A DNA stretch of 42,008 nt, taken from Patescibacteria group bacterium (GTDB lineage Bacteria > Patescibacteriota > Minisyncoccia > UBA6257 > GWB1-50-10). The stretch is from contig JBBTSG010000014.1 of assembly GCA_038064775.1 (NCBI GenBank), forward strand, positions 26,708-68,715, in the 5' to 3' direction. Positions 7,489 to 36,385 of this stretch are shown here, one piece after another. A program made the translations under genes and the position numbers. Under the pieces are notes generated by a model. That model saw only the letters and a program-made list of their open reading frames with translations. It had not been told where the DNA came from and did no database searches. The stretch's first letter is position 1. Each line of letters begins with the position of its first letter.

Positions 7489-7517
7489 ATTGAAACGCGC
7501 TTTTTTGTTCAAATAAA

Positions 7518-7548
7518 AAACCGCTCTGAGTTTTTCGAAGAGCGGTTT
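7518..7548. repeat. Family-A tandem-GA hairpin forming a bidirectional terminator
   Basis: AAACCGCTCTGAGTTTTTCGAAGAGCGGTTT. Confidence 0.8.
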
Positions 7549-7900
7549 ATTTCAAAAATTGTTTGAAATTTGTGAGTATTCCATCATCAGCGCGGAGGCC
7601 GGTCGGTGTTATTTTCATAAACCAATCGTTTATTTCAATGAACTTTCCGACTTCTTTTCTAAGCTTGAGCCAGAGAATTATAAATCCGACAAAGGCCGAA
7701 TGATCGCTTGCTGGCAGGCTGTATGGTTTCTCGCGCGATCCAAGGCCGTAAACGAAACGGTGTTCAACAGAAGGATCGAGAACTCTCACGTCCCTCTTTT
7801 TGCCTTCAAGTTCGGCTGTTTCAAATTTTTTTTTGCCTTTTCTTGTCGCAACATGAATGCTGTTTGTACAAATCCAAATATTCATCCGTTCGGAAGTCAT
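7547..7900 (-). CDS. Hypothetical protein
   Basis: 117-aa ORF with GAAAGGT SD-like site upstream; ends at the terminator. Confidence 0.6.
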   Translation of the reverse strand: MTSERMNIWICTNSIHVATRKGKKKFETAELEGKKRDVRVLDPSVEHRFVYGLGSREKPYSLPASDHSAFVGFIILWLKLRKEVGKFIEINDWFMKITPTGLRADDGILTNFKQFLK

Positions 7901-8041: not shown

Positions 8042-8458
8042 ATGAAAATCCCAGCGCGACCGGATGAAATACAGAAAAGATTTGAAGGCAAAATAGCGGG
8101 TAGGCCAGGTGAAGGATTCGCGGAAGTTATTACACAAAGCAAAAACGGTAAAGATGTTCCGGACTGCTGGTGCCCGAAATGCGGCAAACTTGCTAGCACG
8201 TTAGAACATGGCAGCAGGAATATAGGTTTCAGAAGATTTGACTATCCCCGCTTTATTTGTAATGATTGCAGCCTTATTTATTTCAATAAATCAGTTGTTA
8301 AAAATCTTTTGCGTGAATATTTTTCGTCTCGCAGTCTTCACACAAAAGGAGAATTCGCCAGCGCTTGGCGCATTATAAATGCCGAAATCGAAGAATTTAA
8401 AAAATGGTGGAGAGAACACGGTTGGAAAATAGCTATTTTCAAAAGAAAAGCGCCCTGA
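8042..8458 (+). CDS. Hypothetical protein with Zn-ribbon (CPKC...CNDC)
   Basis: AGGAG SD; its TGA stop is supplied by the family-A repeat. Confidence 0.7.
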   Translation: MKIPARPDEIQKRFEGKIAGRPGEGFAEVITQSKNGKDVPDCWCPKCGKLASTLEHGSRNIGFRRFDYPRFICNDCSLIYFNKSVVKNLLREYFSSRSLHTKGEFASAWRIINAEIEEFKKWWREHGWKIAIFKRKAP

Positions 8459-8478
8459 GTTTATCGAAGGGCGTTTTT
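8446..8478 (+). repeat. Family-A hairpin/terminator
   Basis: AAAAGCGCCCTGAGTTTATCGAAGGGCGTTTTT. Confidence 0.85.
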
Positions 8479-8484
8479 ATTTTA

Positions 8485-12521: not shown

Positions 12522-12556
12522 GCCAAATTTATTCTAATCGCTCTAGCAAAAAAGAA

Positions 12557-12587
12557 AAAGCGCCCTTCGATAAACTCAGGACGCTTT
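12557..12587 (-). repeat. Family-A hairpin/terminator
   Basis: AAAGCGCCCTTCGATAAACTCAGGACGCTTT, near reverse complement of the 8446 copy. Confidence 0.85.
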
Positions 12588-12927
12588 AAAATATTTTAAA
12601 CCCAACTTTTTTGGCCTTTTTCAAAATCCATTCTTGTTTCCATTTTAAAACCGAGCTTTTTATAAGCAAAATTTCACCATTATTCATTACAACATAACGA
12701 TGCCAGCCACCAAATCCATAAATAGTACTGCTATCGTGAACTGAGATAGTAAATTCGGCTTTCACTCTTGGGCTATACCTCTTGTTATTTTTTGAAAGAT
12801 TTTTCCAGTGATCATGAAATGCTTTGAAGGAATAATCATCGGTGTCATTTTCTCTTTCCCGAAAACCCTCTCCTTCAACCTGAATCATCTTCTTAAACGC
12901 GTTTTTCTGAAAAATAAAAACCGGCAT
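12586..12927 (-). CDS. Hypothetical protein
   Basis: 113-aa ORF, GGAG SD, terminator immediately downstream. Confidence 0.6.
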   Translation of the reverse strand: MPVFIFQKNAFKKMIQVEGEGFRERENDTDDYSFKAFHDHWKNLSKNNKRYSPRVKAEFTISVHDSSTIYGFGGWHRYVVMNNGEILLIKSSVLKWKQEWILKKAKKVGFKIF

Positions 12928-13855: not shown

Positions 13856-16399
13856 TTATTTCCCATGACACTTCTTATATTTCTCTCCTGATCCGCACCA
13901 ACAGGGATCGTTTCTTCCTATACTCTTGAATTCCGGTGGGGGCGCCTGCGTTTTTTGAGTTGGCTGATTTAGATTCTCCAGTTTCAAATCAAAAACCTGG
14001 AAAACCGTGTTAAAAACAATCGTTTCGAAATTCTTTTCGAGCGCTTGAAAAAGCTGATGCGCCTCGCGCCGATATTCCACAAGCGGTTCGTGCTGGCCGT
14101 AAGCGCGAATATTTACCGATTCGCGCAGACCGTCAAGATTTTCCAAGTGGTCAACCCAAAGCATATCTAAAATTCTGGCTAAATGTTGGCCGATTATAGC
14201 GGATCTTAACGGTTCAAATTCCGTGGGCACCGCCGCTACTTTTTTATTAAATTCTTCAAATTGTTTTTGCCCTTCTTCATTCGGTTGGCTTTCCAGTTGG
14301 TTTTTTGTTGCTCCTAAAACTTTTTCAAAAATTTCTTCCAAAATCGGCCTTACTTTATTTTCTTCGCCAAAGCGCAAAAACTTAGCACGCCGATCATAAA
14401 CAACTTTCCGCTGTTTGTTTAGCACATCGTCAAAATCAAGAAGATGATGGCGAATATCAAAATTCGCTCCTTCCACTTTCGCTTGCGCTTGGTTCACCAC
14501 CCGCGAAACCATACTTGATTCAATTGGAATATCAGAAGGAAAATTAAACCTTTCCATCAAAGCTTTTAACCGATCGCCGCCGAAAATCCGCGTTAAATCG
14601 TCTTCGAGCGAGAGAAAAAATCTTGAAGAACCCGGATCGCCTTGTCTGCCGCTCCGGCCGCGCAATTGATTATCAATCCGCCGCGCTTCGTGCCGCTCCG
14701 TGCCAATTATATGCAAGCCACCTAATTCTTTGATTCTTTCGGCAGCTGATTTATCCGGCGGATTGCCGCCTAAAACAATATCAACGCCACGGCCGGCCAT
14801 ATTTGTCGCAACAGTGACGGCGCCTAACCGACCAGCTTGAGCAATAATCTCCCCTTCCCGTTCGTTATTTTTGGCGTTTAAAACTTCATGAGGAACGTTA
14901 GCGCGCTTTAAATAATCAGAAATAATTTCGTTGTTTGTAATGGAGGTTGTGCCAAGCAACACGGGCTGGCCTTTTTTATTTTTTTCTTTAACTGCTTCGA
15001 CAATAGCTTCATATTTCGCCTGCTTAGTTTTATAAATTGCGTCAGAGTGATCCTCTCGAACCATTGGCCTATTTGATGGAATTGATTGAACGTCAAGGTT
15101 ATAAACTTTATGAAATTCTTCGGCTGAGGTTTGCGCCGTGCCAGTCATGCCGGCAATTTTTTGGTAAAGCCGGAAATAATTTTGAATGGTGATAGTCGCG
15201 TAAGTGCGGTTTTCCTGCCGCACCGCCAAATTTTCTTTTGCTTCAATTGCCTGATGAAGGCCGCCTGAATAACGCCGGCCGTAAAGAATGCGACCGGTAA
15301 ATTCGTCAACAATTAAAATTTCGCCGTTTTTTACCATGTATTCTTTGTCCCGCTTGAACAAAGTTTTGGCTTTCAAGCTTTCTTGCAAGAAGTGAACAAG
15401 TCGAGCGTTTGCCGGATCAAAAATATTTTTAATGCTGATCATTTTTTCCACCTTATCCAACCCTGCTTCGGTGATATTCACCGATTTTATTTTTTCATCA
15501 ACCGCGTAATCCTCTTCCGGTTTCAACGCTTCAACGACTTTGGCAAAAGTTTTGTAAAATTCGCTCGACTCCGCGTCTGGCGCGGCAATAATTAAAGGCG
15601 TCCGCGCCTCATCAATTAAAATACTATCCACTTCGTCAATGATGGCGTAATTATGTCCGCGTTGAACTTTATCGGCTAATTTCAGAGTAAGATTGTCTCG
15701 CAAAAAATCAAAACCAAATTCGTGATTAGTGCCATAAGTAATGTCCGCCAAATACGCCTCTTTTCTATTAATTGGCCGCAAAAATTTTTCAATAACGCGA
15801 AAACTGCCGACCTCGTCCCGTTCTTTGTCTAAATCACTAACTTCACCCTTCGACTCGCTCAGGGCAGGCCCTTCGACGCGGTTTAAAGCAAGAAATTCTG
15901 GATCATAAAGATAAGCGGTATCGTGAATAATGCAAGAAATTTTTAATCCGAGCGAGTGGTAAATTTGGCCCATCCAAACCGTATCGCGGCGCGCCAAATA
16001 ATCGTTCACGGTAACCACGTGAACGCCGCGTCCGGTTAAAGCATTTAAATACGTTGGTAATGTGGCGACTAATGTTTTTCCTTCGCCGGTTAACATCTCC
16101 GCAATTTTTCCTTCGTGAAGAACCATGCCGCCCATAAGCTGAACATCAAAATGGCGCTGGCCGAGTTCGCGTTTTGCCGCTTCGCGAACCAAAGCGAAAG
16201 CTTCCGGCAAAACTTCTTCAAGAACTTCTTTATCACCATTTTTTGATTTAACTTCTTCTCGCAGTTTTAATGATTTTTCCTTAAGTTCTTCGCTACTTAA
16301 CTTTTCAATTTCTTTCTCTTTATCGTTTACAAGCAAAACAACGCCTTCGAGGCGTCGCAGAATTCTTCCGGAGAATAATTTTGTTAAAAATGATGCCAT
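13856..16399 (-). CDS. secA: Preprotein translocase ATPase SecA
   Basis: MLTGEGKT, DEVDSILIDEARTPLII, ATNMAGRG, RRIDNQLRGRSGRQGDPG, SEC-C motif GRNDPCWCGSG. Confidence 0.98.
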   Translation of the reverse strand: MASFLTKLFSGRILRRLEGVVLLVNDKEKEIEKLSSEELKEKSLKLREEVKSKNGDKEVLEEVLPEAFALVREAAKRELGQRHFDVQLMGGMVLHEGKIAEMLTGEGKTLVATLPTYLNALTGRGVHVVTVNDYLARRDTVWMGQIYHSLGLKISCIIHDTAYLYDPEFLALNRVEGPALSESKGEVSDLDKERDEVGSFRVIEKFLRPINRKEAYLADITYGTNHEFGFDFLRDNLTLKLADKVQRGHNYAIIDEVDSILIDEARTPLIIAAPDAESSEFYKTFAKVVEALKPEEDYAVDEKIKSVNITEAGLDKVEKMISIKNIFDPANARLVHFLQESLKAKTLFKRDKEYMVKNGEILIVDEFTGRILYGRRYSGGLHQAIEAKENLAVRQENRTYATITIQNYFRLYQKIAGMTGTAQTSAEEFHKVYNLDVQSIPSNRPMVREDHSDAIYKTKQAKYEAIVEAVKEKNKKGQPVLLGTTSITNNEIISDYLKRANVPHEVLNAKNNEREGEIIAQAGRLGAVTVATNMAGRGVDIVLGGNPPDKSAAERIKELGGLHIIGTERHEARRIDNQLRGRSGRQGDPGSSRFFLSLEDDLTRIFGGDRLKALMERFNFPSDIPIESSMVSRVVNQAQAKVEGANFDIRHHLLDFDDVLNKQRKVVYDRRAKFLRFGEENKVRPILEEIFEKVLGATKNQLESQPNEEGQKQFEEFNKKVAAVPTEFEPLRSAIIGQHLARILDMLWVDHLENLDGLRESVNIRAYGQHEPLVEYRREAHQLFQALEKNFETIVFNTVFQVFDLKLENLNQPTQKTQAPPPEFKSIGRNDPCWCGSGEKYKKCHGK
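15846..15887 (-). repeat. Family-A hairpin plus a degenerate second copy, in frame inside secA
   Basis: Sense strand ...AACCGCGTCGAAGGG CCTG CCCTGAGCGAGTCGAAGGG encodes NRVEGPALSESKG. Confidence 0.8.
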
Positions 16400-21749: not shown

Positions 21750-22022
21750 ATGGCACATACAAAAGCTAAGGGTTCAAGTAAGCTCGGACGCGAATCCGAG
21801 TCAAAACGGCTTGGCGTAAAACTTCAAGACGGCGAAAAAGTAGCGCCGGGCGAGATTATTGTTCGCCAACGCGGCACGAAATTTTATCCAGGACAAAACG
21901 TTAAACGTGGCGCGGACGACACGCTCTACGCCCTTAAAAGCGGTTCGGTTAAATTTACTACTTCAAAACGCACGCATTTTGACGGCTCAAAGAAATTTGT
22001 GAATGTTGTTCAAGTGATCTAA
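21750..22022 (+). CDS. rpmA: 50S ribosomal protein L27
   Basis: [24 protein letters not shown]...IIVRQRGTK; start moved to ATG 21750. Confidence 0.97.
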
Positions 22023-22475: not shown

Positions 22476-23671
22476 AGTTCAGCTCGTAAAATTTCCAAAG
22501 CTTTTTCTAACTGAATGTCTTTAGTACTCGTTGAGTTTTCGTCTAGCGCTTTAACTTCAATGTCCGGTGTTAAACCCTTTTTGTTAATTTCCGTGCCGTT
22601 CGGCGTGAGCCACTCCGCCACCGAAACTTTTAAGCTCGAACCGTCTTTCAAATTTTGAATTTCTTGAACCGTCCCTTTACCGAATGATTTTTCGCCAATA
22701 ATTTTTATATTCCGATTGTCGCGCAGGGCACCCGCCAAAATTTCTGAAGCTGAGGCAGAACCGCCATTCATTATAATAACCATTGGTAGATTTCTCATTG
22801 CTTCATTGCCATTCGCATAAAATTTATCTTCATTGCTAGCGTGATATCGTTCCCGGACAACTACATCGCCCCGTTTTAAAAACCAGCCAGCTAAATTTAC
22901 TGAAACATCCAAAAAACCACCGGGATTATTCCGTAAATCTAAAACCACGCCTTTTGCACCGTGAGTCAGTGCTTCAAACGCTTTATTGTAAAAAAGCGAA
23001 GGCGCGTTGGAATTAAAATTATAAAGGTGAAGATAGGCAATTTTTCCTGGTTTCATTTCGTAGTCAAGCGTTGGTACGTTGATAATCGCACGAGTGATCT
23101 TAATTTCTTTAGCCGCCGCCCAACTATCGCGTGAAATTAAAAATACTACCACCGTTCCCGGCTCGCCGCGGATAATTTTTATCGCCTCATCAATCGGAAG
23201 GCCGGTTGAATCCGTATCATTGATCTTCAATATTTTATCGCCTGGCCTCAGACCGGCTGCTTCGGCTGGAGTGTCTTTTAAAGGCGCGATTACCACCAAC
23301 TGGTCATTTTTTATACCAATCTGAGCGCCAATACCGCCAAAACTGCCGCTTAAATCTTGCGCAAATTTTTGGGTATCAACGGGTTTGAAAAAGGTCGTGT
23401 AAGGATCTTTAACTGTGCCGACTACTCCTTGAATCGCTCCATAAAGAAAATCTTGATCTTTAAAATCTTGGACGTTAACATAACGACTTTTTACAATATT
23501 TACCGCATCCCAGAAAAGAGAAAAATCAGCGTTGATTAGCTCGTGACTATCGGTAATATTAATAACCGCTCTTTGGCTGCCAAAACGAAATCCGCCGTAA
23601 AAAAAACCGCCGGCAACAATAAGAATAAAAAGCGTGAAACCGAGTATTTTTGAAACTTTTTTGAAACGCAT
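22472..23671 (-). CDS. ctpA: Carboxyl-terminal processing protease (S41A, PDZ)
   Basis: DPYT, GIGA PDZ, DLRNNPGG, SASASEI, SFGKG. Confidence 0.92.
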   Translation of the reverse strand: MRFKKVSKILGFTLFILIVAGGFFYGGFRFGSQRAVINITDSHELINADFSLFWDAVNIVKSRYVNVQDFKDQDFLYGAIQGVVGTVKDPYTTFFKPVDTQKFAQDLSGSFGGIGAQIGIKNDQLVVIAPLKDTPAEAAGLRPGDKILKINDTDSTGLPIDEAIKIIRGEPGTVVVFLISRDSWAAAKEIKITRAIINVPTLDYEMKPGKIAYLHLYNFNSNAPSLFYNKAFEALTHGAKGVVLDLRNNPGGFLDVSVNLAGWFLKRGDVVVRERYHASNEDKFYANGNEAMRNLPMVIIMNGGSASASEILAGALRDNRNIKIIGEKSFGKGTVQEIQNLKDGSSLKVSVAEWLTPNGTEINKKGLTPDIEVKALDENSTSTKDIQLEKALEILRAEL

Positions 23672-23758
23672 AGATTTAATTTAACAGGATTTTTTGTTTT
23701 AAGGCAATTTAACTAATCCATTTGTCATTAATTCGGATTTTAGCATAAAATTAAGATA

Positions 23759-24094
23759 ATGGCGCTTGATAAAAATTATCTTGAAACATTAAGAAAACGT
23801 TCAAAGCAAGGCCATATTTATAGAAAGTATCAATTGACCGGCCTTATGCTTGCCGACCTGCTCCGCGATCGACCGCATAAAGCAATTTATATCCGACTTG
23901 CTAAAAACTATGATGAAGGAGAACTAATGGGAATTGCCAAGGAAATATCTCAAAATAAAAACATTATAAACCGCGGCGCTTACTTCATGAAAATAGTTCA
24001 GAGTTTGCCGAAAAGCGTCCGAAAACCAATCGTAAAAAAACCGAAAATCCAAAAAAAGAAGCAGAAAGAACTTTTCAAATGGAAGAAAAAATAG
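23759..24094 (+). CDS. Basic hypothetical protein upstream of def
   Basis: 111-aa ORF overlapping the def start; -10 box just upstream. Confidence 0.7.
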   Translation: MALDKNYLETLRKRSKQGHIYRKYQLTGLMLADLLRDRPHKAIYIRLAKNYDEGELMGIAKEISQNKNIINRGAYFMKIVQSLPKSVRKPIVKKPKIQKKKQKELFKWKKK

Positions 24095-24588
24095 TAACAA
24101 TTGAAAAGAAAAGTGATGAAAGATTTCTACGCGAAAAAACGCGGGATTTTGATTTCTCGAAACATTCAAAAAAAGATATTCGGGAGTTAGTGAAAAATAT
24201 GAGATTGATGATGAAAAAGGCGAATGGCGTCGGCCTCTCTGCTAATCAAATTGGCCTACACCACAAAGTTTTTGTCGCCCAAGTGCCAGACAGCCAAAAC
24301 CAATTAAAATTCTACGCGATTTTTAATCCGAAAATTGAAAAAGCGTCTGTTGAGAAAGAAATTCTTGAAGAAGGATGTTTGAGTATACCTGAATCCTACG
24401 GATCGGTTCCGCGAAGCTATCGACTCACTCTTATCGGTCAAGATCAGGCCGGCAAAAAAATAAAAATAAAAGCGTGGGGGCTTCTGGCGCGAGTTTTCCA
24501 ACATGAATGCGATCATTTGGACGGTAAACTATTTATCGACCGAACAAAACAAGTGTTGAAGAAAGAACCTGCGCACCATGACAAATGA
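24079..24588 (+). CDS. def: Peptide deformylase
   Basis: GVGLSANQIG, EGCLS, QHECDHLDG. Confidence 0.97.
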   Translation: MEEKIVTIEKKSDERFLREKTRDFDFSKHSKKDIRELVKNMRLMMKKANGVGLSANQIGLHHKVFVAQVPDSQNQLKFYAIFNPKIEKASVEKEILEEGCLSIPESYGSVPRSYRLTLIGQDQAGKKIKIKAWGLLARVFQHECDHLDGKLFIDRTKQVLKKEPAHHDK

Positions 24589-24605
24589 CAATAACAATAA
24601 ACAAA

Positions 24606-25439
24606 ATGAAATATGTCTTCTTCGGCACGCCGGAATTTGCCGAGGTTATTTTGGAAAAACTTATTGAAAACGGCATTCCGCCAAGTTTAGTTGTTTGCAA
24701 TCCCGATAAGCCAGCTGGTCGCAAAAAAATTATCACTCCCCCTTTAGTTAAGATTTTAGCTGAAAAAAACAATATTAAAGTTTACCAACCTGAAAAGTTA
24801 GAAGTTAAAAGTTTTAAAAAAGAGATTGGCGAATCTGGATTTGCCGTTGTCGCCGCTTACGGGAAAATTATCCCAAAAAATATTATTGATTTATTTCCGC
24901 AAGGCATAATCGGCGTTCATCCTTCGCTTTTACCTAAATACCGTGGCGCTTCTCCAATTCAGACGGCAATTCTTAATAATGAGGAACAAACTGGCGTCAC
25001 TTTTTATTTACTCGATGAAAAAACCGACCACGGGAAAGTTTTAGCTCAACAAGCGCTCTATGAACCAATTGATCAAATTTATTACGAAGAATTATTGAAA
25101 AATCTTGCCTCACTTGCGGGAGAAATGCTCGCTGGATTTTTGCCAGATTTTGTAAAAGGTGAAATAGCGCCGCAAGCGCAAGATGAAACGCAAGCGACTC
25201 AGACAAAAAAATTCACAACGGATGACGGACGCGTTGATCTAGGAAAGGATGATCCGGAGGTAGTTTGGCGAAAAGTGCGCGCCTTAAATCCAGAACCGGG
25301 CGTATTTACCCTGAGTCCGTCGAAGGGCGGACTAAGAAGAATGAAAATACTAGAGGCGGATTTTTTTCCGGCAGTTGCCGGAGGCAAATTAAAACTGAAA
25401 AAAATTCAGTTTGAAGGCAAAAAGCCGCAAGATTTATAA
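24606..25439 (+). CDS. fmt: Methionyl-tRNA formyltransferase (short C-domain)
   Basis: FFGTPEFA, VAAYGKI, HPSLLPKYRGASPI; start is ATG 24606 or 24585. Confidence 0.95.
   Translation: MKYVFFGTPEFAEVILEKLIENGIPPSLVVCNPDKPAGRKKIITPPLVKILAEKNNIKVYQPEKLEVKSFKKEIGESGFAVVAAYGKIIPKNIIDLFPQGIIGVHPSLLPKYRGASPIQTAILNNEEQTGVTFYLLDEKTDHGKVLAQQALYEPIDQIYYEELLKNLASLAGEMLAGFLPDFVKGEIAPQAQDETQATQTKKFTTDDGRVDLGKDDPEVVWRKVRALNPEPGVFTLSPSKGGLRRMKILEADFFPAVAGGKLKLKKIQFEGKKPQDL
25309..25327 (+). repeat. Family-A hairpin in frame inside fmt
   Basis: CCCTGAGTCCGTCGAAGGG encodes LSPSKG. Confidence 0.8.
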
Positions 25440-25452
25440 ATAGTTACTTGTC

Positions 25453-25683
25453 TTATTTCTGCGCTTTTTCGTCCAGATATTCAACAAAGGATTTAAGTTG
25501 AATCAAAGCTATCGCGCGATCTTCTATTTTTTTGGCGTTTGTTTCAAGATAGCGCCACCAATTTTGGTCGCCTTCAAGTAAAGTATTAAAAAGCTCGGCA
25601 TGGTTTTTCAGTTTTTCCAAAAGCGCGTCAATTTCCTGTTCGGTTTTTTGCTCTGGCAAGAGTTCTTTTGGAAACTGTTCCAT
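25453..25683 (-). CDS. Small acidic hypothetical protein
   Basis: 76-aa ORF co-oriented with sod. Confidence 0.65.
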   Translation of the reverse strand: MEQFPKELLPEQKTEQEIDALLEKLKNHAELFNTLLEGDQNWWRYLETNAKKIEDRAIALIQLKSFVEYLDEKAQK

Positions 25684-25690
25684 AGTTTAG

Positions 25691-25909
25691 TTATTTATTT
25701 TGTTCTTTTTCTAAAACTTCCAAATATTTTTCTTTTGCGATACGAGCTTTTTCTTTCGCGTCTATTGGCGCGTTATGACGACCAGCTATTCCTGAAGCTT
25801 TAAGCCAATCCTGTCTTAATTCTTCTAAAGTAACGTCTTCAAACGGCGCTTCTTTTGCCCGTTCTACTTTTTTCCGCATGCTTTCGGTTTCTTGAGGAAT
25901 CTTTTCCAT
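25691..25909 (-). CDS. Small charged hypothetical protein
   Basis: 72-aa ORF starting 3 nt after the sod stop. Confidence 0.65.
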   Translation of the reverse strand: MEKIPQETESMRKKVERAKEAPFEDVTLEELRQDWLKASGIAGRHNAPIDAKEKARIAKEKYLEVLEKEQNK

Positions 25910-25912
25910 GTT

Positions 25913-26572
25913 TTAGATAAATAATTTTTCAACTTCATTCCAATTCACTACGTTCCACCACGCCTCAATATATTCCGACCGGCGGTTTTGGTATTTCAAA
26001 TAATAAGCGTGTTCCCAAATATCGAGTCCGAGTAATGGTTTTAATCCTTGAGAAATAGGATTGTCTTGATTGGATGTCGTAATAATCGACAAGCCCTTCG
26101 ACTCGCTTTGCTCGCTCAGGGCAAGCCATGCCCAGCCGCTTCCAAAAACACTAACAGCCGCATTTGAAAATTGTTCTTTAAACTTCGCGAAATCGCCGAA
26201 AAACTTTGTGATTGCGTCGGCAATTTTACCGGTTGGTTCACCTGCCTGCGCAGGCAGGTCGCCAGTTGGTGAATTAGGCGCCATAATCCGCCAAAAAAAA
26301 GAATGGTTGTAATGTCCCCCGCCGTGATTTTGAACGGCTTTTCTAATATCTTCCGGCACAGCACTTAAATTCGCGAGCAACTCTTCAAGCGATTCTAGTT
26401 CAGGCTTGCCCGCCGTAGTTTCAGCGAAGGCGGGATGTTTCGTGAGCGCTTCATTTAATTTTGTGACGTAAGTTTGGTGATGTTTTGTGTGGTGAATTTC
26501 CATCGTTCGCGCGTCAATAAACGGTTCAAGGGCGTCGTAAGCGTATGGCAATTTTGGAAGTTCATATTTCAT
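25913..26572 (-). CDS. sodA: Fe/Mn superoxide dismutase carrying three palindromic in-frame inserts
   Basis: [33 protein letters not shown]. Confidence 0.93.
26092..26122 (-). repeat. Family-A hairpin (long form) in frame inside sod
   Basis: GCCCTGAGCGAGCAAAGCGAGTCGAAGGGC encodes [10 protein letters not shown]; core differs by 1 nt from the copy at 27610. Confidence 0.85.
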
Positions 26573-26582
26573 CCCGTTAGAA

Positions 26583-27113
26583 TTAAGATTGCTTTAATCG
26601 TTTGTTTACGACCATCAACATTATGATCAATAAAAAAATTGTGAGTGACATCATTGGCATCGTAATATAGCCAAATTCCATTACGTAGCGTTTAGCGCAA
26701 GAAACTAAACTTGCTCCGCATAAACCAGTGGTAATTCCCATTTGTATAAGATGATTATAAAGAGCAATAATAGCGCCGAGAATCGAAAGAATTAATGCAT
26801 TAAGCGAAGAAATAGTATAATCTTTTTTCCAAAGGGCAATTCCAAAAATAATCACTTGCGGATACATAAAAATTCGCTGAATCCAGCAGAGGTTGCAAGG
26901 TTCGTAGCCGGCGATACTCGAATAAAACAAACTGCCGATGGTAGCGCCGAGCACGGCCAAAAAAGAGATGAAAAAAGCATTTTCTCCGAAAAATCTAAAA
27001 AATTTGTTGGATGTTTGTTTGAAAACTAAAGAACCAAAAAGCGCCAAAATAATTAATTGGCCGAGAACGGTGAGAATTCCTAAAACTGAATTTATAGCTG
27101 GGGTAGTAAACAT
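26583..27113 (-). CDS. Disulfide bond formation protein DsbB/BdbC family
   Basis: [25 protein letters not shown]; second Cys pair; TM helices. Confidence 0.9.
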
Positions 27114-27499
27114 TAATTAGTAGGGAGTGCGCAACCACTTTTTTCGGCAAGTCGTTCTAAAGAAATTACGTCGATCTCGCGCGTGCCGTCCGGATATTGC
27201 CAAGTAGGATAACCGTCAATTCCTTGTTTCTTACAAACATCAAGCTGACCGTTACCGTCTGGTGTGGAACACTCAACGTATGGCAAAAATTTTTCGGCTG
27301 AACCGAACATTTTCTTTTGGTTCTGGCAATGTGGACACCAAAAAGCGCCGTAAAAAGTCAGTCCTTTGTCTTTAAGACAAGTGGCAAAACCATCGAGTTT
27401 ACTCGGTGCATTTTTTGAAATTGATGACCAGACAAAAAGTCCGGCGAGAACGAAAACGACAACTGCAACCCAAATCCAAGTTGATTTATTATTATTCAT
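27113..27499 (-). CDS. Membrane-anchored thioredoxin-fold protein
   Basis: FYGAFWCPHC...YVEC...C...GYPTW. Confidence 0.88.
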   Translation of the reverse strand: MNNNKSTWIWVAVVVFVLAGLFVWSSISKNAPSKLDGFATCLKDKGLTFYGAFWCPHCQNQKKMFGSAEKFLPYVECSTPDGNGQLDVCKKQGIDGYPTWQYPDGTREIDVISLERLAEKSGCALPTN

Positions 27500-27539
27500 A
27501 AGCTAATTTAATTATACTTGCGGTTTCAAAAATCACAAT

Positions 27540-27610
27540 TGCGGGATCGTCTAATGGTAGGACGTCTGGCTCTGAACCAGAAAATTGGGGTCCGATTCCC
27601 TGTCCCGCAG
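27540..27610 (+). tRNA. tRNA-Gln(CTG)
   Basis: TGCGGGA/TCCCGCA acceptor stem, TCTGG-CT-CTG-AA-CCAGA; T-loop TCCGATT; CCA not encoded. Confidence 0.92.
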
Positions 27611-27682
27611 CACTTCGACTCGCTTCGCTCGCTCAGTGCGAGCACATAAATTGACGAAGTGTCCTGAGCGAAGTCGAAGGAC
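27610..27682. repeat. Inverted pair of family-A hairpins between tRNA-Gln and the GIY-YIG gene
   Basis: GCACTTCGACTCGCTTCGCTCGCTCAGTGC (27610-39) and GTCCTGAGCGAAGTCGAAGGAC (27661-82). Confidence 0.85.
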
Positions 27683-27686
27683 CAAA

Positions 27687-27926
27687 ATGTATTACGTTTA
27701 TTTGATTCAATGTGAGGATAAAAGCATATACACTGGTATTACCAATAATCTAGAAAGAAGATTCAAGGAACATAAAGGTAAAATTGGCGGACACTATACA
27801 GCATCTCATAAAGTTGAAAGGATTATTCACACGGAAGAATTTGAAACTAAAAGCGAGGCATTAAAACGGGAATCACAAATCAAAGGTTGGCGCAGGGAGA
27901 AGAAGTTAGCTTTAATTGGTAAATAA
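27687..27926 (+). CDS. Stand-alone GIY-YIG nuclease (UPF0213/YhbQ-like)
   Basis: MYYVYLIQC...IYTGITNNLERRFKEH...EALKRESQIKGWRREKK; start moved to ATG 27687. Confidence 0.92.
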   Translation: MYYVYLIQCEDKSIYTGITNNLERRFKEHKGKIGGHYTASHKVERIIHTEEFETKSEALKRESQIKGWRREKKLALIGK

Positions 27927-27957
27927 GTCATCCCGCTCGGGGAGCGTCTGAATATCC

Positions 27958-28404
27958 ATGAAAAAAGTAAAGACAAAAAGAAATCCAGTTATTGCACTTC
28001 AGCTCTCTTTAAGATTTGCAAAGGAATACTTAAAAATTCTTTGTGAAATGAGAAAAAAGCATACCACTGCTGAAATTCAATTATAAAAAGAACTCACAAT
28101 CATTCACCGAGCATTGTGGACTTCGTTAATTATTGAGATAGGACGTCTATTCGATCCTTATAAAGGAAAAAATAAAAAGATTATTTCATTAAAGAAAATA
28201 AAAACTTTTAAAGAAATGATAGACAATGTTCATGGCGAAGCAATCATATGTAAAATAATTAACACGAGAAATACGTTTACAGCTCATTGGGCAGAAGAAG
28301 GAAGTAACCCTATTGCAGTCACTGAGATATGTAATTCAAAACTAGGAAAATTACTTGATGAACTAAATAAATTATCAATCACTACTGATATGATAAAACT
28401 ATGA
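27958..28404 (+). pseudogene. HEPN (AbiU2-like) domain gene interrupted by an in-frame TAA at 28084
   Basis: ATG 27958 is in frame with ORF 28114..28404; LIIEIGRLFD...ISL...RNTFTAH (R-X5-H). Confidence 0.6.
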
Positions 28405-28550
28405 AACCAAAAGATTATTTATGGCTGTTAATTCCCCTTGGAATTATTGTGCTTATTATTCTTTCCGTTCTCTTTGTGCCTGCAGAAAAATATGACCCAG
28501 ATTTCGATCCTAGAATTGAAAATTGTGGGCCAGGTGGCACGCCATGCTAA
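28401..28550 (+). CDS. Small single-TM protein (49 aa)
   Basis: MKPKDYLWLLIPLGIIVLIILSVLFVPAEKYDPDFDPRIENCGPGGTPC; ATGA overlap with the upstream stop. Confidence 0.6.
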   Translation: MKPKDYLWLLIPLGIIVLIILSVLFVPAEKYDPDFDPRIENCGPGGTPC

Positions 28551-28682
28551 TCTAGAGCGCTCGAGACATGTCGTTCTAGTAAGGTCGGGACGACCTCCTA
28601 AAACCCTTACTGGACTTGACAGTCCAATGGTTCTACCTCAAAACGGTCAGTCAAAAAAATAAGGTCAATAAATAGAGCATAT

Positions 28683-28711
28683 TTGACAATTTGTTTTAAG
28701 TATGCTACACT
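28683..28711 (+). promoter_or_regulatory. Sigma70 promoter
   Basis: TTGACA-17-TACACT with extended -10 TG. Confidence 0.65.
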
Positions 28712-28767
28712 TTAAACTAGCTCATAACTAATAAATTAGTTCTTGAAAATTTCATAAAGGAGAGATT

Positions 28768-28974
28768 ATGGCCGCGCCAAGTTGCTCCAAATGTCATTTA
28801 ACAATGCGGGAAGTAAAAACAACAAAGAAATACGTGAAATATGAATGTCCGGAAGAATGCGGAAATACGCTAACAATACAAAAGAAAAAAGATCCCGTGT
28901 TCGAAAAACCCAAGCCCGCGACTTTGTTTTCACAAACACTGCCCCCTCCAAAAGAACCAGATCTATTTTCTTAA
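28768..28974 (+). CDS. Small Zn-ribbon hypothetical protein
   Basis: CSKC...CPEEC, AAAGGAG SD, own promoter and terminator (28990-29017). Confidence 0.7.
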   Translation: MAAPSCSKCHLTMREVKTTKKYVKYECPEECGNTLTIQKKKDPVFEKPKPATLFSQTLPPPKEPDLFS

Positions 28975-29059
28975 AACAGTTTTTATAAGAAACCGCCCTT
29001 AATTTTGGGCGGTTTTTATATATTGTGATAAAAATATTTTCGAAATATAATTAACACAA

Positions 29060-29374
29060 ATGAAAATTTCTCAAAAACTAATCCCTTTCCTAGAAGTAGC
29101 TGGCCTTACTTTTTATGTGAGCATATTTGCCATTTCTGTCCAAACCGCCGGTTCTATTTTGCCGCCAATTCCAGAACCGATTATTCCAATGATTATCTTC
29201 CTACTCCTTTTTGTTTTTTCGGCAATAATCTGTAGCGCTTTAATGCTCGGCTATCCGATTTATCTTTTTTTCGATAACCGCAAGCAAGAGGCAGTAAAAA
29301 TTTTAATTCAAAGCGTTATTTGGCTTGCGATATTTTTTATTATTTTTGTTTCGCTCATCATACTTACAAAATAG
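29060..29374 (+). CDS. Hypothetical 3-TM membrane protein
   Basis: LLLFVFSAIIC..L.LGYP pattern; -10 box just upstream. Confidence 0.75.
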   Translation: MKISQKLIPFLEVAGLTFYVSIFAISVQTAGSILPPIPEPIIPMIIFLLLFVFSAIICSALMLGYPIYLFFDNRKQEAVKILIQSVIWLAIFFIIFVSLIILTK

Positions 29375-29392
29375 TTAACCATAGAAATAAGA

Positions 29393-29425
29393 AAAACCAC
29401 CCTGAGTTTATCGAAGGGTGGTTTT
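29393..29425. repeat. Family-A hairpin forming a bidirectional terminator
   Basis: AAAACCACCCTGAGTTTATCGAAGGGTGGTTTT; the 19-nt core is identical to 8453-8471. Confidence 0.85.
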
Positions 29426-29431
29426 AAAATT

Positions 29432-30622
29432 TTACCGTTTTAAGTTTCGCGCTACTTCCAAGGCTTTAAAAAGCTGAACGTCTTGCGGGTTCTTTGTCTG
29501 ATCGTTTAATGGCAAGATCTTAAAATCTAGTTTTAAGCCTACGCCCTTAACAGAAATTCGATTGGGTGTTAACCAACGATTGGTAGTAAGAGTGATCCTC
29601 GAGCTGTCAGGCATTAAAAAACAGGTTTGAATTAAATTCTTGCCAAAAGTTTCTTCGCCGACAGTAACCGCCAAATCATAATCCTTTAGAGCGCCGATCA
29701 CCATTTCTGAAGCGGAAGCAGTTCCTTTGTTAACTAAAAATACCTCCTGTCGGTCTCGAAGCGGAGCAAAAAATTTTCTTGTTTCAACTTTCACAATCTT
29801 TTCACTATCACGCCCCAATTCAAAATAAATGGTCTCCCCTCTCGGAAGCCAAAGAGAGATAAAACGATCAGCTGAAATAACAGGTCCGCCGCCATTATTT
29901 CTAAAATCAAAAACAAATCTGGCTTTCGGAAAATAATTCATAACATCATAAACAAAAGATTCGATAGTATCAATATTCCTTTGCTCAAAATTCGGCAAAG
30001 ACAAAACAAAAATACTATCTTCAAAAATCTGGCATTTAAACTCGTCTTTTTCAATGCGCCAAAAACTTCTCCTCAAGGAAAGTTTTTGTTTTTTATGATT
30101 TCTCGTCTTCAAAACTTCAAGAGAAACTAAAGAATTAAGAGGGCCGGCAAGCGCGGTTATCGCCTCTCCTTTTAGCATTCCTTTTGTTTTTGCGCCGTCA
30201 ATTGAATAAATTTTATAACCAACTTCTAAACGGGCTTCGTCGGCAGAGCTTTTATCTTGAACGTTAGTAATAATCAAACAACTATCGGCGGTTTCTATTT
30301 CAATACCAATCAAACCAACCGTATCAGTAAAAAATATATGGTTATAGTACCAAAATTCTTTAGCGGTCAAAAAATTTGAGTACGGGTCATGAAGGGCAGA
30401 AACCATGCCTTTTAGGGCGGCGTGAACAAGTTTTTCCTGATCTGGCACGTCAGCGTAAAACTGGCTGTTAATTAAAATTTCGCCAATTCTCAGGTAAGCT
30501 AGCTCCCTGAAAAATTCGGAATCGTTAAAAAATTTCTCGCTTTTCGCGCTTTTCGTTTGGGCCTCCCCTACTCTAGGTAAAAACCAAAACAAGCATAAAA
30601 CTAAAATGACTGTCCTTTTCAT
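29432..30622 (-). CDS. Second, divergent S41 carboxyl-terminal protease with cleavable signal peptide
   Basis: HDPYS, IGIE PDZ, DFRNNGGG, TASASEM, TFGK. Confidence 0.85.
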   Translation of the reverse strand: MKRTVILVLCLFWFLPRVGEAQTKSAKSEKFFNDSEFFRELAYLRIGEILINSQFYADVPDQEKLVHAALKGMVSALHDPYSNFLTAKEFWYYNHIFFTDTVGLIGIEIETADSCLIITNVQDKSSADEARLEVGYKIYSIDGAKTKGMLKGEAITALAGPLNSLVSLEVLKTRNHKKQKLSLRRSFWRIEKDEFKCQIFEDSIFVLSLPNFEQRNIDTIESFVYDVMNYFPKARFVFDFRNNGGGPVISADRFISLWLPRGETIYFELGRDSEKIVKVETRKFFAPLRDRQEVFLVNKGTASASEMVIGALKDYDLAVTVGEETFGKNLIQTCFLMPDSSRITLTTNRWLTPNRISVKGVGLKLDFKILPLNDQTKNPQDVQLFKALEVARNLKR

Positions 30623-30700
30623 ATCGGTAAATCCTTTCTTCTTAATGATTTATTTGTGAAAGATAACTGATGTTGATTATAAATCTTTTAAGTAAAAAAT

Positions 30701-31050
30701 AAAAACCCCCAAGCGTTATAGCCGCGGGGGTTTGTTTTTTGGACACTACTAACTTTATTTAAAATACCAACAACTACCCTTTACGAAGATAGGTACGGCT
30801 CTATAGCTAAGACAGTTTTAAGGAAAGGCAGGTGTAAAGGTTTTTTTCTACGAAACTTCTTGATTAATGTAGAAAGTAGTTTGTTGGTTCCAAAATTCAG
30901 TTTTCCTACCGTTGCTTGTAAATAGGGCTGAAATTGGATTTTACGAGCGCAGGAGTTAGGCGCTCACTGCTTCCGACCGTCGTCCACAAAGCGATGGTTA
31001 AACTGCTTAGAACCGACCTTAAAAACAAGAAAAGATAGCGATAAATTGCT
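30701..31050. ncRNA. Candidate large structured ncRNA (about 250-350 nt)
   Basis: ORF-free region with six helices including a three-way junction; minus-strand TTGACA-16-TATAAT at 31057-31084; terminator at 30701-30740. Confidence 0.5.
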
Positions 31051-31164
31051 AAAAGCATTATAAGACATGATTAACGCCTGTCAAGAACAAATTTTGCTTA
31101 TTCAATTTTGTATAATAAATAGGTAAGAAAAAGGTCGGTTGATTAAAAATTCTTAAATTCCAAC

Positions 31165-31389
31165 ATGAAAGAACTTCATAAGGTTTCGTTTATACTCCTT
31201 GTAATCGGCGGCTTGAACTGGTTGTTGGTTGGTCTTTTTTCTTGGGACATCGGCGTGATTTTTGGCGGCCAAGACGCGGGCCTCTCAAGAATCATATACG
31301 TGCTGGTTGGTCTCTCGACAATCTACTTGCTCACAACGCACAAGAAAGATTGTCGTTACTGCATGTCCTCAATGGATATGCCTAAGTAA
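31165..31389 (+). CDS. DUF378 family membrane protein
   Basis: LLVIGGLNWLLVGLF...SRIIYVLVGLS. Confidence 0.9.
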   Translation: MKELHKVSFILLVIGGLNWLLVGLFSWDIGVIFGGQDAGLSRIIYVLVGLSTIYLLTTHKKDCRYCMSSMDMPK

Positions 31390-31472
31390 GATAACTTAAT
31401 AGAAAAAATCAAAAACGGTCTACTTTAAAAGAAGTAGGCTGTTTTTGTTTACGCTATAATTAAAGAGCTTTT

Positions 31473-32315
31473 ATGGATAAGAAAATAAAATCGATAAATT
31501 TTTTCTACCGATCGGAAAATAAAAAAGCGGTTTTTTGGAAAAAGAAGATCATACTTTGGCTTAAAAAGAATTATCCTCTCTTAAAAGTTACCAATAAAAA
31601 ACCGGGCGCAATAATCGTTCTTGGGGGCGACGGCACGGTACTCACCGCAACAAGGCATTACCAAAAATTAAACACCTTAATCTTAGGGTTGAATCTTGGT
31701 CAAGTAGGTTTTTTGACTGCCGTCCGTGAAGAGAAAAACTTTTTCCCGGCGCTTGAAAAATTTCTTAAAGGAGATTATTTAATAGTTGAGAAAATGACTT
31801 TACAAGCAAAAATTAAACGCAACAAAAAAATAATTTTTGAAACTTTTGCTTTAAATGATATTGTCGTAACTAATCCTTTAGGACTCGTGAAAATTGAGGT
31901 AATGATTACGGGCTATCCTTTTCAACACGTTCAAGGCACTGGCATTCTGGTTGCAACACCTACTGGTTCCACCGCTTATAATCTTTCCGCTCACGGTCCG
32001 ATTGTCTCTCCTGATATTAATTGCCTCATCGTTACTGAAATTCTTGATCATAATATCCCAACACCAAGCATCGTGCTTAAACCCGAAGAAACGGTCAGTT
32101 TAAAAATTTCAAGTTTCCGCGAACATAACCTGCTTGCAATGAAAAGCACCGGTAAAAAGGCGGAAGTAATAATGGTTGCGGATGGGCAAAAGATTTTCCC
32201 GCTTGTTGCAAAAGACGTTATTCAAATTTCCCGCTTACCCTATTCCGTTAAATTTGCCGAAATAGAAGAAAAATACTTTTTGAAAAGCCTTCGAGAAAAA
32301 TTTGCTTTCGATTAA
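31473..32315 (+). CDS. nadK: NAD kinase
   Basis: LGGDGT, GLNLGQVGFL, ALND, ATPTGSTAYNLSAHGP. Confidence 0.93.
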   Translation: MDKKIKSINFFYRSENKKAVFWKKKIILWLKKNYPLLKVTNKKPGAIIVLGGDGTVLTATRHYQKLNTLILGLNLGQVGFLTAVREEKNFFPALEKFLKGDYLIVEKMTLQAKIKRNKKIIFETFALNDIVVTNPLGLVKIEVMITGYPFQHVQGTGILVATPTGSTAYNLSAHGPIVSPDINCLIVTEILDHNIPTPSIVLKPEETVSLKISSFREHNLLAMKSTGKKAEVIMVADGQKIFPLVAKDVIQISRLPYSVKFAEIEEKYFLKSLREKFAFD

Positions 32316-32317
32316 AT

Positions 32318-33226
32318 TTAGGTTCGTAAGTAACGGCGGATAGCGAAAATACCAGAAACAATGCCTAATCCAGCGCAGAAAAGAAACTGATAAAAGAAAA
32401 GTGAATAAATGTTGTCTTGAAAATAAGCTTTAAGATTAACATCCGGAATAAACTGATAAATATGAGGCGAAATAAAATTAATAATCGGCCAAAGAGCAAT
32501 GAAACTAATAATGGCTGAAATCACGCCATAGACAGCTCCTTCAAAAATATATGGACCGCGAATAAAACTATTTGAAGCGCCAACCAATCGCATGATATTA
32601 ATTTGTTCGCTGTTTGAAAAAATAGCGAGCCGAATAGTGTTGAAAGTTACCGTGACGGCAAGAAAAGACAGAAAAACCGTGAGCACCAAACCGGTTTTTT
32701 TCATTGTGTCCACAAGTCCGACTAGCCGGTCAATTACCACTTGATTTTGAGCGTAAGTAACTTTTTCGGTCTGATTTTTAATATCTGCCGCTTCAAGATA
32801 ATTTGCTATCGCTTCGTATTCATGAGGATCGCGCGCTTTAATATTTAACGCTGGTAATAATGGATTAACGTCTAGTTGTTCCAAGGTTTGAGTAATTGTT
32901 TCTTCGTTCGCGTGGCGAGCTTTAAAATCAGCTAACGCCTGATCTTGAGAAACGTAATCCACTATTTTTACTTCTGATAGTCCCTCGAGTGACTTTTTAA
33001 TGCTCAAAATCGTGTCTTCGGAAATATTGCTTTTGAAATAAACGCTTATGTCAATTTTTTCCTGAATTGATTGAACGGTATTTTGGCCGGCAATATTAAA
33101 TAAAATCAATCCGCCAAAAACAAAAGCCGCCAAAATCATAATGCTAATTGTGGAGACAGAGAGCCAACCATTACGTAAAAATCCCTGCCAACCATATTTA
33201 ATAATTCTAGAAAGAGTTACCATCAT
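32318..33226 (-). CDS. ftsX: Cell division permease FtsX
   Basis: NTIRLAI...IMRLVGASNSFIRGPYIFEG; follows ftsE. Confidence 0.93.
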   Translation of the reverse strand: MMVTLSRIIKYGWQGFLRNGWLSVSTISIMILAAFVFGGLILFNIAGQNTVQSIQEKIDISVYFKSNISEDTILSIKKSLEGLSEVKIVDYVSQDQALADFKARHANEETITQTLEQLDVNPLLPALNIKARDPHEYEAIANYLEAADIKNQTEKVTYAQNQVVIDRLVGLVDTMKKTGLVLTVFLSFLAVTVTFNTIRLAIFSNSEQINIMRLVGASNSFIRGPYIFEGAVYGVISAIISFIALWPIINFISPHIYQFIPDVNLKAYFQDNIYSLFFYQFLFCAGLGIVSGIFAIRRYLRT

Positions 33227-33232
33227 ATAATT

Positions 33233-35317: not shown

Positions 35318-35318
35318 G

Positions 35319-35927: not shown

Positions 35928-36385
35928 AGTAAGTCGTAAGCGGGATTCTGTTCCGGCGGTTGCCGGATGTGATAATTCATCTGGGCCCTCGATTGCTCTC
36001 GGGCTCTGGCGGCACTCTCCATTTCTGGAGTACGGCCTTGCACTCGGGTAAGGATTTAGCCGTTTCATTTTCGCTTTTTTATCTCTATAGCGAAATTAGA
36101 CCAAACTAGCTTGAGATTGGGTCTTCCCTCGGCTTTCGCCTCGGGACGTTTCTGTTCGCACCTCTAAGCTTTCACTCGACGGGCGTTACCCGCTACCTGC
36201 CGAATTTGTCCGAGCGTTGCGAGGTTACAAATTCGAGCATCCCGAGCCACGTCGAGGGATTTTTGTCCTTCGACAAACTCAGGACACTGAATTTTGTAAT
36301 TACTCGTTATAACTCGCAAACAAAATTCGTGAGTGTCCCGACTTTCCTCTATTATTTTTAAATAATAGCTATCACTTGACTTACT
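35928..36385 (-). ncRNA. rnpB: RNase P RNA with a large inserted helix
   Basis: GAGGAAAGTCGGGAC, GGGTAACGCCC, GTGCGAACAGAAAC, CCCGAGTGCAAG, ACAGAATCCCGCTTAC; P1 AGTAAGTC/GACTTACT; promoter TTGCAA-17-TATACT (36392-36420). Confidence 0.93.

Follow-up and report, generated by a model that had tools for sequence, protein, structure and literature searches.

A family of short hairpin repeats associated with small UPF0213-type GIY-YIG nuclease genes in Patescibacteria and other bacterial phyla

Introduction

The stretch of DNA analyzed here (42,008 nt of contig JBBTSG010000014.1 from a Patescibacteria genome, hereafter the window) carries a tRNA-Gln gene followed by two inverted copies of a short CTGAG-loop-TCGAAG hairpin and by the gene for a stand-alone GIY-YIG nuclease of only 79 aa. 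Other copies of the hairpin are scattered through the window. The locus raises the question of whether hairpins and nuclease form a single system, comparable to the repetitive extragenic palindromes (REPs), their inverted doublets (REPINs) and the HUH-type Y1 transposase RAYT (TnpA-REP), as had been proposed when the sequence was read by itself (hereafter the original prediction). Here we describe the hairpins as a repeat family, its association with a gene family in several phyla, the co-variation of the two in abundance across genomes, and one cassette with a duplicated target. We consider it somewhat probable that the CTGAG-loop-TCGAAG hairpins are a widespread family of short palindromic repeats whose coding partner is a small, mobile GIY-YIG gene of the UPF0213/Slx1-like type.

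Results

A repeat doublet and a minimal nuclease gene behind tRNA-Gln

The original prediction described an inverted pair of hairpins ending 4 nt upstream of the start codon of the nuclease gene, and this is what the locus holds (plus-strand copy with its stem at 27661-27682, ATG at 27687; Table 1). The 3' end of the tRNA-Gln gene abuts the start of these repeats directly. On the predicted fold, the pair is better read as a single doublet at the 3' end of the tRNA gene, with arms that would pair with each other. When the whole element (27608-27686) is folded, the arms pair together and the fold beats those of shuffled sequences (z -3.27); each of the two single hairpins beside the nuclease gene folds no better than shuffles (z -0.81 and +0.71; standard DNA model). 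The 3' arm of the short plus-strand copy reads GAAGGA and could act as a putative ribosome-binding site as well. Our reading of positions 27610-27926, held with slightly more confidence than doubt, is that they make up one cassette at the 3' end of tRNA-Gln, in which a REPIN-like inverted doublet is followed by the nuclease gene, with dispersed copies of the repeat elsewhere.

The protein had been named a minimal GIY-YIG nuclease of the UPF0213 type, and the name is borne out by a full-length PF01541 domain (72.3 bits, cut-off 22.6; E 4.2e-20; aligned over positions 1-76 of the 78 in the profile) together with hits to solved UPF0213 proteins. A profile built from relatives of the nuclease matched the PDB entries 1zg2 (E 4.4e-19) and 1ywl (E 3.5e-18), both labeled 'UPF0213', and, weakly, eukaryotic SLX1 (7cq2, E 1.1e-3). 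The conserved positions of the GIY-YIG domain (the Tyr of GIY, the Tyr-x-Gly of YIG, Arg, His and Glu) are present, and Y5, Y15, G17, R24, R25, H29 and E62 are invariant among 30 relatives. At E<=1e-5 we found 610 homologues, with identities of up to 87%. No NCBIfam family reached its cut-off for the window protein, the group I intron endonuclease model scoring 17.1 bits against 56. UPF0213 is a large and very common protein family without a known function.

The 24-nt core of the doublet's left arm (Table 1; hereafter the 24-mer) recurs in comparable positions elsewhere. It abuts the 3' ends of four different tRNA genes in three genera, its placement after tRNA-Gln being repeated after tRNA-Met (contig C15 of the window's own genome), tRNA-Leu (locus L004) and tRNA-Phe (locus L006), and it also occurs in genomes G004 and G017. 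The window's own genome, G000, comprises 605,612 bp in 26 contigs (40% G+C). At its tRNA-Met gene on C15 the doublet is present and the nuclease gene is absent, and hairpins of the family lie at most 70 nt downstream of 3 of its 44 tRNA genes. Among 80 metagenome loci selected by the nuclease protein alone, 13 have the 24-mer, identical or near-identical, 19-124 nt upstream of the related GIY-YIG gene. The usual layout of such loci is that of the window, namely a tRNA gene, the 24-mer on the minus strand, a spacer, the short plus-strand copy and the ATG, and plus-strand copies stand 8-23 nt before the ATG in L136, L137, L179, L181, L183 and L207. A tRNA gene is found within 300 nt in 29 of the 80 loci, mostly tRNA-Gln or tRNA-Met, upstream and on the same strand. 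Related cassettes either have the doublet's right arm in full or lack it altogether, and in the window's cassette the copies lie upstream of the nuclease gene only.

Hairpins are enriched beside small GIY-YIG genes

We scored the motif strictly as CTGAG-N(3-16)-TCGAAG and counted copies within 150 nt of a gene as near. The enrichment beside small UPF0213-type genes that the original prediction proposed was found among the relatives of the gene, in hairpin-rich genomes of the same phylum and in other phyla. The 80 protein-chosen loci contain 24 strict motifs in the 23,554 bp near the gene, compared with 4 in the 220,755 bp farther away, which corresponds to a roughly 56-fold higher density; a nearby strict motif is present in 17 of the loci, where 0.43 would be expected. 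Under a looser structural definition the count rises to 30 of the 80, with a 12-fold density ratio. In five hairpin-rich genomes of the same phylum, nearby copies accompany 8 of the 14 genes that score at least 57 bits but only one of the 13 that match more weakly (Fisher 0.009).

We also scored all GIY-YIG genes in ten genomes from other phyla, which had been reached via hairpin loci. Copies lie within 150 nt, often on both sides, of 8 of the 18 small GIY-YIG genes and of none of the 12 genes of UvrC size (first set: 6/9 small genes, 0/5 of UvrC size and 0/5 other weak matches; second set: 2/9 small genes and 0/7 of UvrC size), and the chance of a nearby copy, calculated from genome-wide densities, is 0.3-7% per gene. 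Over all sets of loci, the window's phylum included, repeats flank the gene, often in inverted orientation, in L217, L218/L104, L215, L253, L277, L286 and L295. The gene at L217, for example, lies between 26-nt inverted copies, 67 nt from the upstream and 65 nt from the downstream one, and at L104/L218 three plus copies precede it and at least three minus copies follow. At L220 (1769-2047), nine tandem copies come right after the GIY-YIG gene and the open reading frame (ORF) continues through them. A cultured organism is represented by Planktothrix agardhii, whose plasmid p1 (L350, 18156-19783) has an annotated GIY-YIG gene between an MmeI-type restriction-modification gene and the DISARM gene drmA, with a variant repeat on both sides (TCTGAG-loop-CGAAGA and a long inverted form).

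Loci chosen by the hairpin were searched as well. A phmmer search of 120 of these (872 kb) with the two GIY-YIG proteins of G000 found one small GIY-YIG gene, in L104, and clustering of the 899 ORFs that neighbor hairpins in the same loci gave no family present in more than three of them. The Y1 transposase of the HUH/RAYT kind (PF01797) had no match in the hairpin-rich genomes G000, G021 and G024. Two PF01797 matches were found in G255, which carries nine copies of the small GIY-YIG gene, and a weak one in G279.

Co-variation of hairpin load with the gene

That hairpin abundance should track the presence of the gene was also part of the original prediction. Across 249 genomes of the same phylum (kinship ignored), hairpin count and the number of such genes are correlated with a Spearman rho of 0.42 (p 7e-12), compared with 0.07 for the reversed pattern, and among the 20 closest relatives rho is 0.45. 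Genomes without the gene hold hairpins at background (3.46 vs 2.78), and all 30 genomes with at least 15 hairpins carry it.

Signs of mobility

Locus L253 is one cassette with inverted motif ends and a duplicated target. Its 361 nt end in CTTCGACAGGCTCAG on one side and, as the inverted copy of this, in GTGAGCCTGTCGAAC on the other, and are flanked by a 17-nt direct repeat (16/17 identical) of the 3' end of tRNA-Ser. Homologues 70-87% identical to the window protein bear the names of several CPR (Candidate Phyla Radiation) classes; those from genomes of its own family reach at most 51%.

Among 11 superoxide dismutase (SOD) genes of relatives, the longer, hairpin-coded segment at the loop that holds the window's sod copy is found only in G000 and G004, and copies therefore do arise as insertions; another insertion coded by a hairpin lies at a different place in the sod gene of G004. 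The motif also forms head-to-tail arrays, with periods of 24, 28 and 33 nt (including contigs C1, C3, C4 and C7 of G017), and partial arm duplications, with repeats of GTCGAAGG and of the left arm, are present in G000 and in a Pseudomonadota genome. In published work, GIY-YIG domain proteins are named among the genes predicted to have been transferred from Patescibacteria (PMC12455944), and GIY-YIG ORFs are reported in non-intron insertions of CPR rRNA genes, most of the insertions being at the tops or bases of stem-loops (PMC11270868).

The repeat core across phyla and its tandem G.A step

An exact 17-mer core, CCTGAGCTTGTCGAAGG, was found in at least 120 stretches of the species-genome collection. 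The matches listed include Proteobacteria, Bacteroidota, Chloroflexota, Actinomycetota, Cyanobacteria, Planctomycetota, Acidobacteriota and CPR groups, so that the repeat core occurs across many phyla and is not special to CPR bacteria. Among 136 copies taken from the matches listed, GTTCG[CT] stands directly upstream in 32 and GTCA[CT] in 22, and 57 copies are accompanied by an inverted partner no more than 80 nt away. Given this shared upstream sequence and the inverted partners, the matches are not chance 17-mers. The repeat sequence common to many phyla amounts to 17-27 nt.

The original prediction also took tandem G.A mismatches to be the structural core of the hairpin. We infer the tandem G.A step through the exchange of T-A and C-G at the neighboring pair, which supports it indirectly. 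In all DNA examined, this pair is T-A in 636 cases, compared with 156 in the reversed control, and C-G in 435 compared with 296; the mismatched T-G shows no excess (149 vs 164) and C-A barely any (287 vs 246). The standard folding model, on the other hand, treats the presumed tandem mismatches as loop. An Rfam scan of the window at gathering thresholds returned tRNA and rRNA only, and a permissive scan of 27500-27720 added only sub-threshold matches to GA-cis and snoZ165. GA-cis RNA (RF02987) was rejected as a candidate, with 12.8 bits against a gathering threshold of 34.7 and an E-value of 3.6.

Copies in the window and in its genome

The strict motif occurs 10 times in the window, compared with a mean of 0.14 in 100 shuffles (largest value 1). 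The whole G000 genome has 34 copies by script and 35 by pattern search, compared with 3 for the reversed pattern. Every copy that had been listed before was recovered, at 7526, 8455, 12565(-), 15848(-), 25311, 26096(-), 27613(-), 27664, 29402 and 36268(-); the earlier coordinates start 2-4 nt sooner because the flanking stem was included in them. The finer points agree as well. The variant reported at 36239 is ATCCCGAGCCACGTCGAGGGAT (36239-36260), in which C-G replaces the T-A pair beside the G.A/A.G step, the sod copy differs from the nuclease-adjacent 24-mer at 1 of 24 positions, and the flanking stems vary between copies yet stay complementary.

The copies sort into three groups, namely terminator-like hairpins at gene ends, copies inside ORFs, and inverted doublets (Table 1). 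The terminator-like group comprises seven exact copies of CTGAGTTTATCGAAG (TTTA loop) plus variants, with an A-run before and a T-run after. Their outer stems of 6-12 bp differ between copies and are still complementary, and they fold far better than shuffles (z -4.1 to -5.4). In 9 of the 10 copies that could be assessed, the G.A strand is the mRNA strand of the gene ending there, as judged from crude ORF calls. A consensus terminator scan of 20000-38000 did not list the window copies at 29402 and 36268, since it allows no G.A mismatch. Copies internal to ORFs occur on either strand. Further doublets are found elsewhere in G000, with arms able to pair by Watson-Crick.

Table 1. Coordinates of the cassette at tRNA-Gln and of the other copies of the repeat in the window
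Feature	Position	Strand	Basis or score
tRNA-Gln (CTG)	27540..27611	+	ARAGORN; Rfam tRNA 57.9 bits
Left arm of the doublet, a long nested repeat copy with the minus-strand core CTGAGCGAGCGAAGCGAGTCGAAG (27613-27636)	27610..27639	-	
Short repeat copy, right arm of the doublet, GTC-CTGAGCGAAGTCGAAG-GAC (16 nt inside the GTC/GAC stem)	27661..27682	+	
Stand-alone GIY-YIG nuclease gene, 79 aa, UPF0213 / bacterial Slx1-like type	27687..27926	+	PF01541
Intergenic copy CTGAGTTTTTCGAAG, 9-bp outer stem, 20 nt before ORF 7559-7963	7517..7549	+	
Terminator-like copy: A-run, 11-bp stem around CTGAGTTTATCGAAG, T-run, at the stop codon of ORF 8042-8458	8445..8479	+	DNA fold z -4.11
Terminator-like copy CTGAGTTTATCGAAG, 8 nt past the 3' end of ORF 12586-12927 (-)	12555..12589	-	
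Copy within 847-aa ORF 13856-16399 (-), sense strand	15848..15862	-	
Copy within 284-aa ORF 24585-25439 (+), sense strand	25311..25325	+	
24-nt copy in frame in the superoxide dismutase gene (sod), encoding LSEQSESKG	26096..26119	-	
Terminator-like copy CTGAGTTTATCGAAG in the gap where ORFs 29060-29374 (+) and 29432-30622 (-) converge	29392..29426	+	z -5.35 (+), -4.81 (-)
Second doublet: variant CCGAG..TCGAGG (+, 36239-36260), TTTT, then GTCCTTCGACAAACTCAGGAC (- copy, core 36268-36282)	36239..36284		

Other observations

A second subfamily of small GIY-YIG genes lies directly upstream of tRNA genes and is preceded by a partial copy of the 5' end of the tRNA concerned, into whose D-loop region a G+C-rich palindrome is inserted. 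We found this arrangement at tRNA-Asn in G000 (C6:1-700, L002) and in 8 of 11 loci fetched from G002 (L234-L243), where the tRNAs are Ala, Leu, Lys, Gln (twice), Glu, Gly and Ser. This subfamily looks like a tRNA-targeting mobile cassette and has no CTGAG/TCGAAG hairpins.

A second palindrome family, CCTGCCTGC-(0-6 nt)-GCAGGCAGG, has nine copies in G000, one of which is at 26241-26258 of the window. One copy lies in frame in sod where G004 has a hairpin insertion, two are beside tRNA genes, and palindromes like it interrupt the partial tRNA copies in G002. The window's sod gene has a further 8-aa insertion (26348-26425, around ETTAGKPE), which none of the 10 other aligned SOD genes shares and in which no clear motif is seen.

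The two exact contig matches to the window in the public run X1 end and begin within the 24-mer (27611-27639). Summed contig depth in this run over the tRNA gene and the 24-mer is 6-27 times that of the flanks, as expected of a repeat common to many community members. The contigs of four DNA runs likewise peak in summed depth over the tRNA gene and the 24-mer, with sequence from many organisms, and yield nothing firm; three contig joints with short sides in these runs were flagged as likely to come from other organisms.

Just after the nuclease gene, a 96-aa ORF (28114-28404) matches HEPN_AbiU2 weakly, below the threshold (16.9 bits, cut-off 26.8; E 0.0045). The region 27926-29060 contains only small unassigned ORFs and may be a candidate small island at the tRNA gene. 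Elsewhere in G000, the ORF that ends before uvrC (L003, G000:C20:13879-17094) reads ...GIDFLGYVVLPHYRVLRTKTKRRILRKI... by direct translation, which we take to resemble the C-terminal part of bacterial reverse transcriptases.

Discussion

Repeats and nuclease as one proposed system

By analogy with REP/REPIN and RAYT, the repeat family and the small, presumably structure-specific nuclease may together constitute one system of that kind built on another enzyme, and this is the reading to which we incline, if only moderately. An enzymatic step is proposed because of the kinship of the protein with Slx1, the lack of a DNA-binding domain in its 79 aa, and the conserved G.A core of the hairpins. Slx1 recognizes branched DNA. 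The palindrome would be extruded as a hairpin or cruciform, and the minimal nuclease, having no DNA-binding domain of its own, would recognize the extruded structure and nick it. Copying or repair at the nick would then carry the repeat, singly, as doublets or in tandem arrays, to new sites, preferably at the tips of hairpins already present and on the 3' side of tRNA genes. The host would retain those copies that are useful or harmless, namely hairpins resembling terminators at the ends of genes and insertions that keep the reading frame within protein loops. A wider version is conceivable and we offer it more tentatively, with some doubt: UPF0213/Slx1-like nucleases would be the mobilizing enzymes of a bacteria-wide superfamily of hairpin repeats with a tandem G.A core, which would insert at hairpin tips, at tRNA 3' ends and in frame into proteins, and this would be the first GIY-YIG-driven DNA repeat system of prokaryotes.

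Several of our results weigh against a single system. At the right edge of the window's cassette there is neither a duplication of the tRNA-Gln 3' end nor a right-hand copy of the motif before 29402. In the 29 best loci of an even phylum sample, one strict motif lies near the gene and none far from it, which is no enrichment, and visual inspection shows clear flanking, by a variant pair, at L277 alone. Most GIY-YIG genes therefore lack such hairpins, and the association is confined to some lineages. Two of the four hairpin-bearing genomes of the second cross-phylum set (G277 and G280) have no hairpin beside any GIY-YIG gene, and the homologues on the Cupriavidus metallidurans CH34 megaplasmid and in Rhizobium phage RHph_TM21B have none in the inspected 220 nt upstream and 270-305 nt downstream of the gene. 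The original prediction named abundant hairpins in genomes without the nuclease as a finding that would count against it; none of the 30 hairpin-rich genomes is such a case, but three genomes hold 10-13 copies and have only a GIY-YIG match of UvrC size (G003, 11 hairpins vs 0 in the control; G134, 10 vs 1; G029, 13 vs 4). Because genomes related by descent are dependent samples, the p-values overstate the case. Finally, the commonest hairpin type in G000, with the TTTA loop, resembles an ordinary terminator, and the copies beside the nuclease gene belong to rare types; the sense-strand bias of the terminator-like copies also fits selection at the RNA level.

Alternative explanations

The main rival holds that the hairpins are landing sites beside which a selfish, homing-type GIY-YIG gene inserts, the hairpins themselves being spread or kept by another process. 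This would account for the position of the gene, which is usually on one side of the doublet, 4-23 nt past the plus copy, and for the tRNA genes that adjoin it in 29 of the 80 protein-chosen loci; a second GIY-YIG subfamily in the same genomes does target tRNA genes without any hairpins. Since gene copy number would rise with the number of targets, the same correlation between hairpins and gene would result. The background hairpin counts of genomes without the gene speak against this explanation, as does the fact that none of the 30 hairpin-rich genomes lacks it. Moreover, no other enzyme family recurs near the hairpins, and the inverted copies on both sides of the gene make the cassettes of L217, L218, L253 and L277 each appear as a single unit bounded by ends of its own. 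All told, we regard insertion beside pre-existing landing sites as unlikely.

The two remaining explanations fit the data less well than either a single system or landing sites. In the first, the hairpins would be RNA or terminator elements of the host, and the copies next to the gene would form a barrier to read-through after the tRNA gene and a hairpin that hides the ribosome-binding site. Hairpins of the latter kind are known in some phage homing-endonuclease genes. The seven exact TTTA-loop copies and their variants, with A-run, stem and T-run at gene ends and with the sense orientation in 9 of 10 assessable cases, would be explained in this way, and so would the plus copy before the ATG, which is always sense-oriented and ends in the 3' arm GAAGGA. 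Against this origin stand the copies on both strands within ORFs, the tandem arrays with periods of 24, 28 and 33 nt, the inverted copies after the gene and the 17-27 nt of sequence common to many phyla, and Rfam offers no match (best GA-cis, 12.8 bits vs gathering 34.7). We consider it improbable. It is more improbable still that no functional link exists and that small selfish genes and repeats merely accumulate wherever insertion is tolerated, next to tRNA genes or at the ends of genes for example: hairpins behind 3 of the 44 tRNA genes of G000 and the proximity of both GIY-YIG subfamilies to tRNA genes agree with this, but the tRNA-associated second subfamily is almost free of hairpins (1/13 weak matches; one strict copy near 15 matches in G002), the other-phylum locus L104/L218, when scanned for tRNA genes, has none near its hairpin-flanked gene, and 0/12 UvrC genes have hairpins.

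Relation to known systems

A single system of hairpins and nuclease would share many features with REP/REPIN and RAYT. In both, short palindromic repeats number from tens to hundreds and lie mainly where genes end, inverted doublets are common, the repeats flank a small nuclease gene, and repeat load co-varies with the presence of that gene. Some REP copies act as terminators. There are also differences. The enzyme here is GIY-YIG rather than HUH, with no Y1 transposase in G000, G021 or G024; copies are found in frame within genes; and the gene is at times multi-copy (nine in G255) and looks horizontally mobile. Moreover, where the end of a REP repeat carries a GTAG or CGTC tag (PMC3733652), the repeats described here have no such tag and instead conserve an inner CTGAG/TCGAAG core that is nearly constant across phyla.

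The protein belongs to the same sequence family as the UPF0213, or prokaryotic Slx1-like, proteins 1zg2 and 1ywl. The passages on this group in the 2006 GIY-YIG survey describe single-domain proteins without an accessory domain, predict a role in DNA repair and mostly vertical descent, and make no mention of repeats (PMC1564403). In contrast, the gene examined here acts like one component of a mobile, repeat-bearing cassette. With the free-standing and intron-borne GIY-YIG homing endonucleases (I-TevI, the T4 Seg proteins) it shares the catalytic domain and selfish behavior; it differs in having 79 aa and no intron, where those enzymes have long C-terminal DNA-binding modules. Phage GIY-YIG homing genes are placed beside conserved genes, including tRNA genes, and have a hairpin before the start codon, two features that the present gene has in common with them. 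Palindromic insertions tolerated in frame in protein loops, as in sod here, recall the Rickettsia palindromic elements and the small mobile sequences of enterobacteria, but the present repeats are far shorter (15-24 nt) and are tied to a specific nuclease gene. In open-access text (subscription journals lie outside it) our searches turned up no paper that connects GIY-YIG/UPF0213 genes to REP-like repeats, nor any with the motif strings, and searches with YhbQ, COG2827 and YazA gave unrelated papers only.

Implications

In practical terms, the repeats break assemblies, create false ORFs and add short peptides to real proteins such as superoxide dismutase; if UPF0213/Slx1-like nucleases do mobilize them, this would account for many spurious small ORFs in annotated genomes. 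The system is small (a 79-aa protein and a 22-nt hairpin) and thus suited to direct biochemical and structural study, and Planktothrix agardhii offers a culturable carrier. If the link between repeats and nuclease is causal, it would explain why a near-identical sequence of 17-27 nt is scattered from CPR bacteria to Proteobacteria, Bacteroidota, Chloroflexota and cyanobacteria. It would also provide, beside REP/RAYT, a second and unrelated example of a nuclease with its own palindromes, and the very common UPF0213 family would gain a role.

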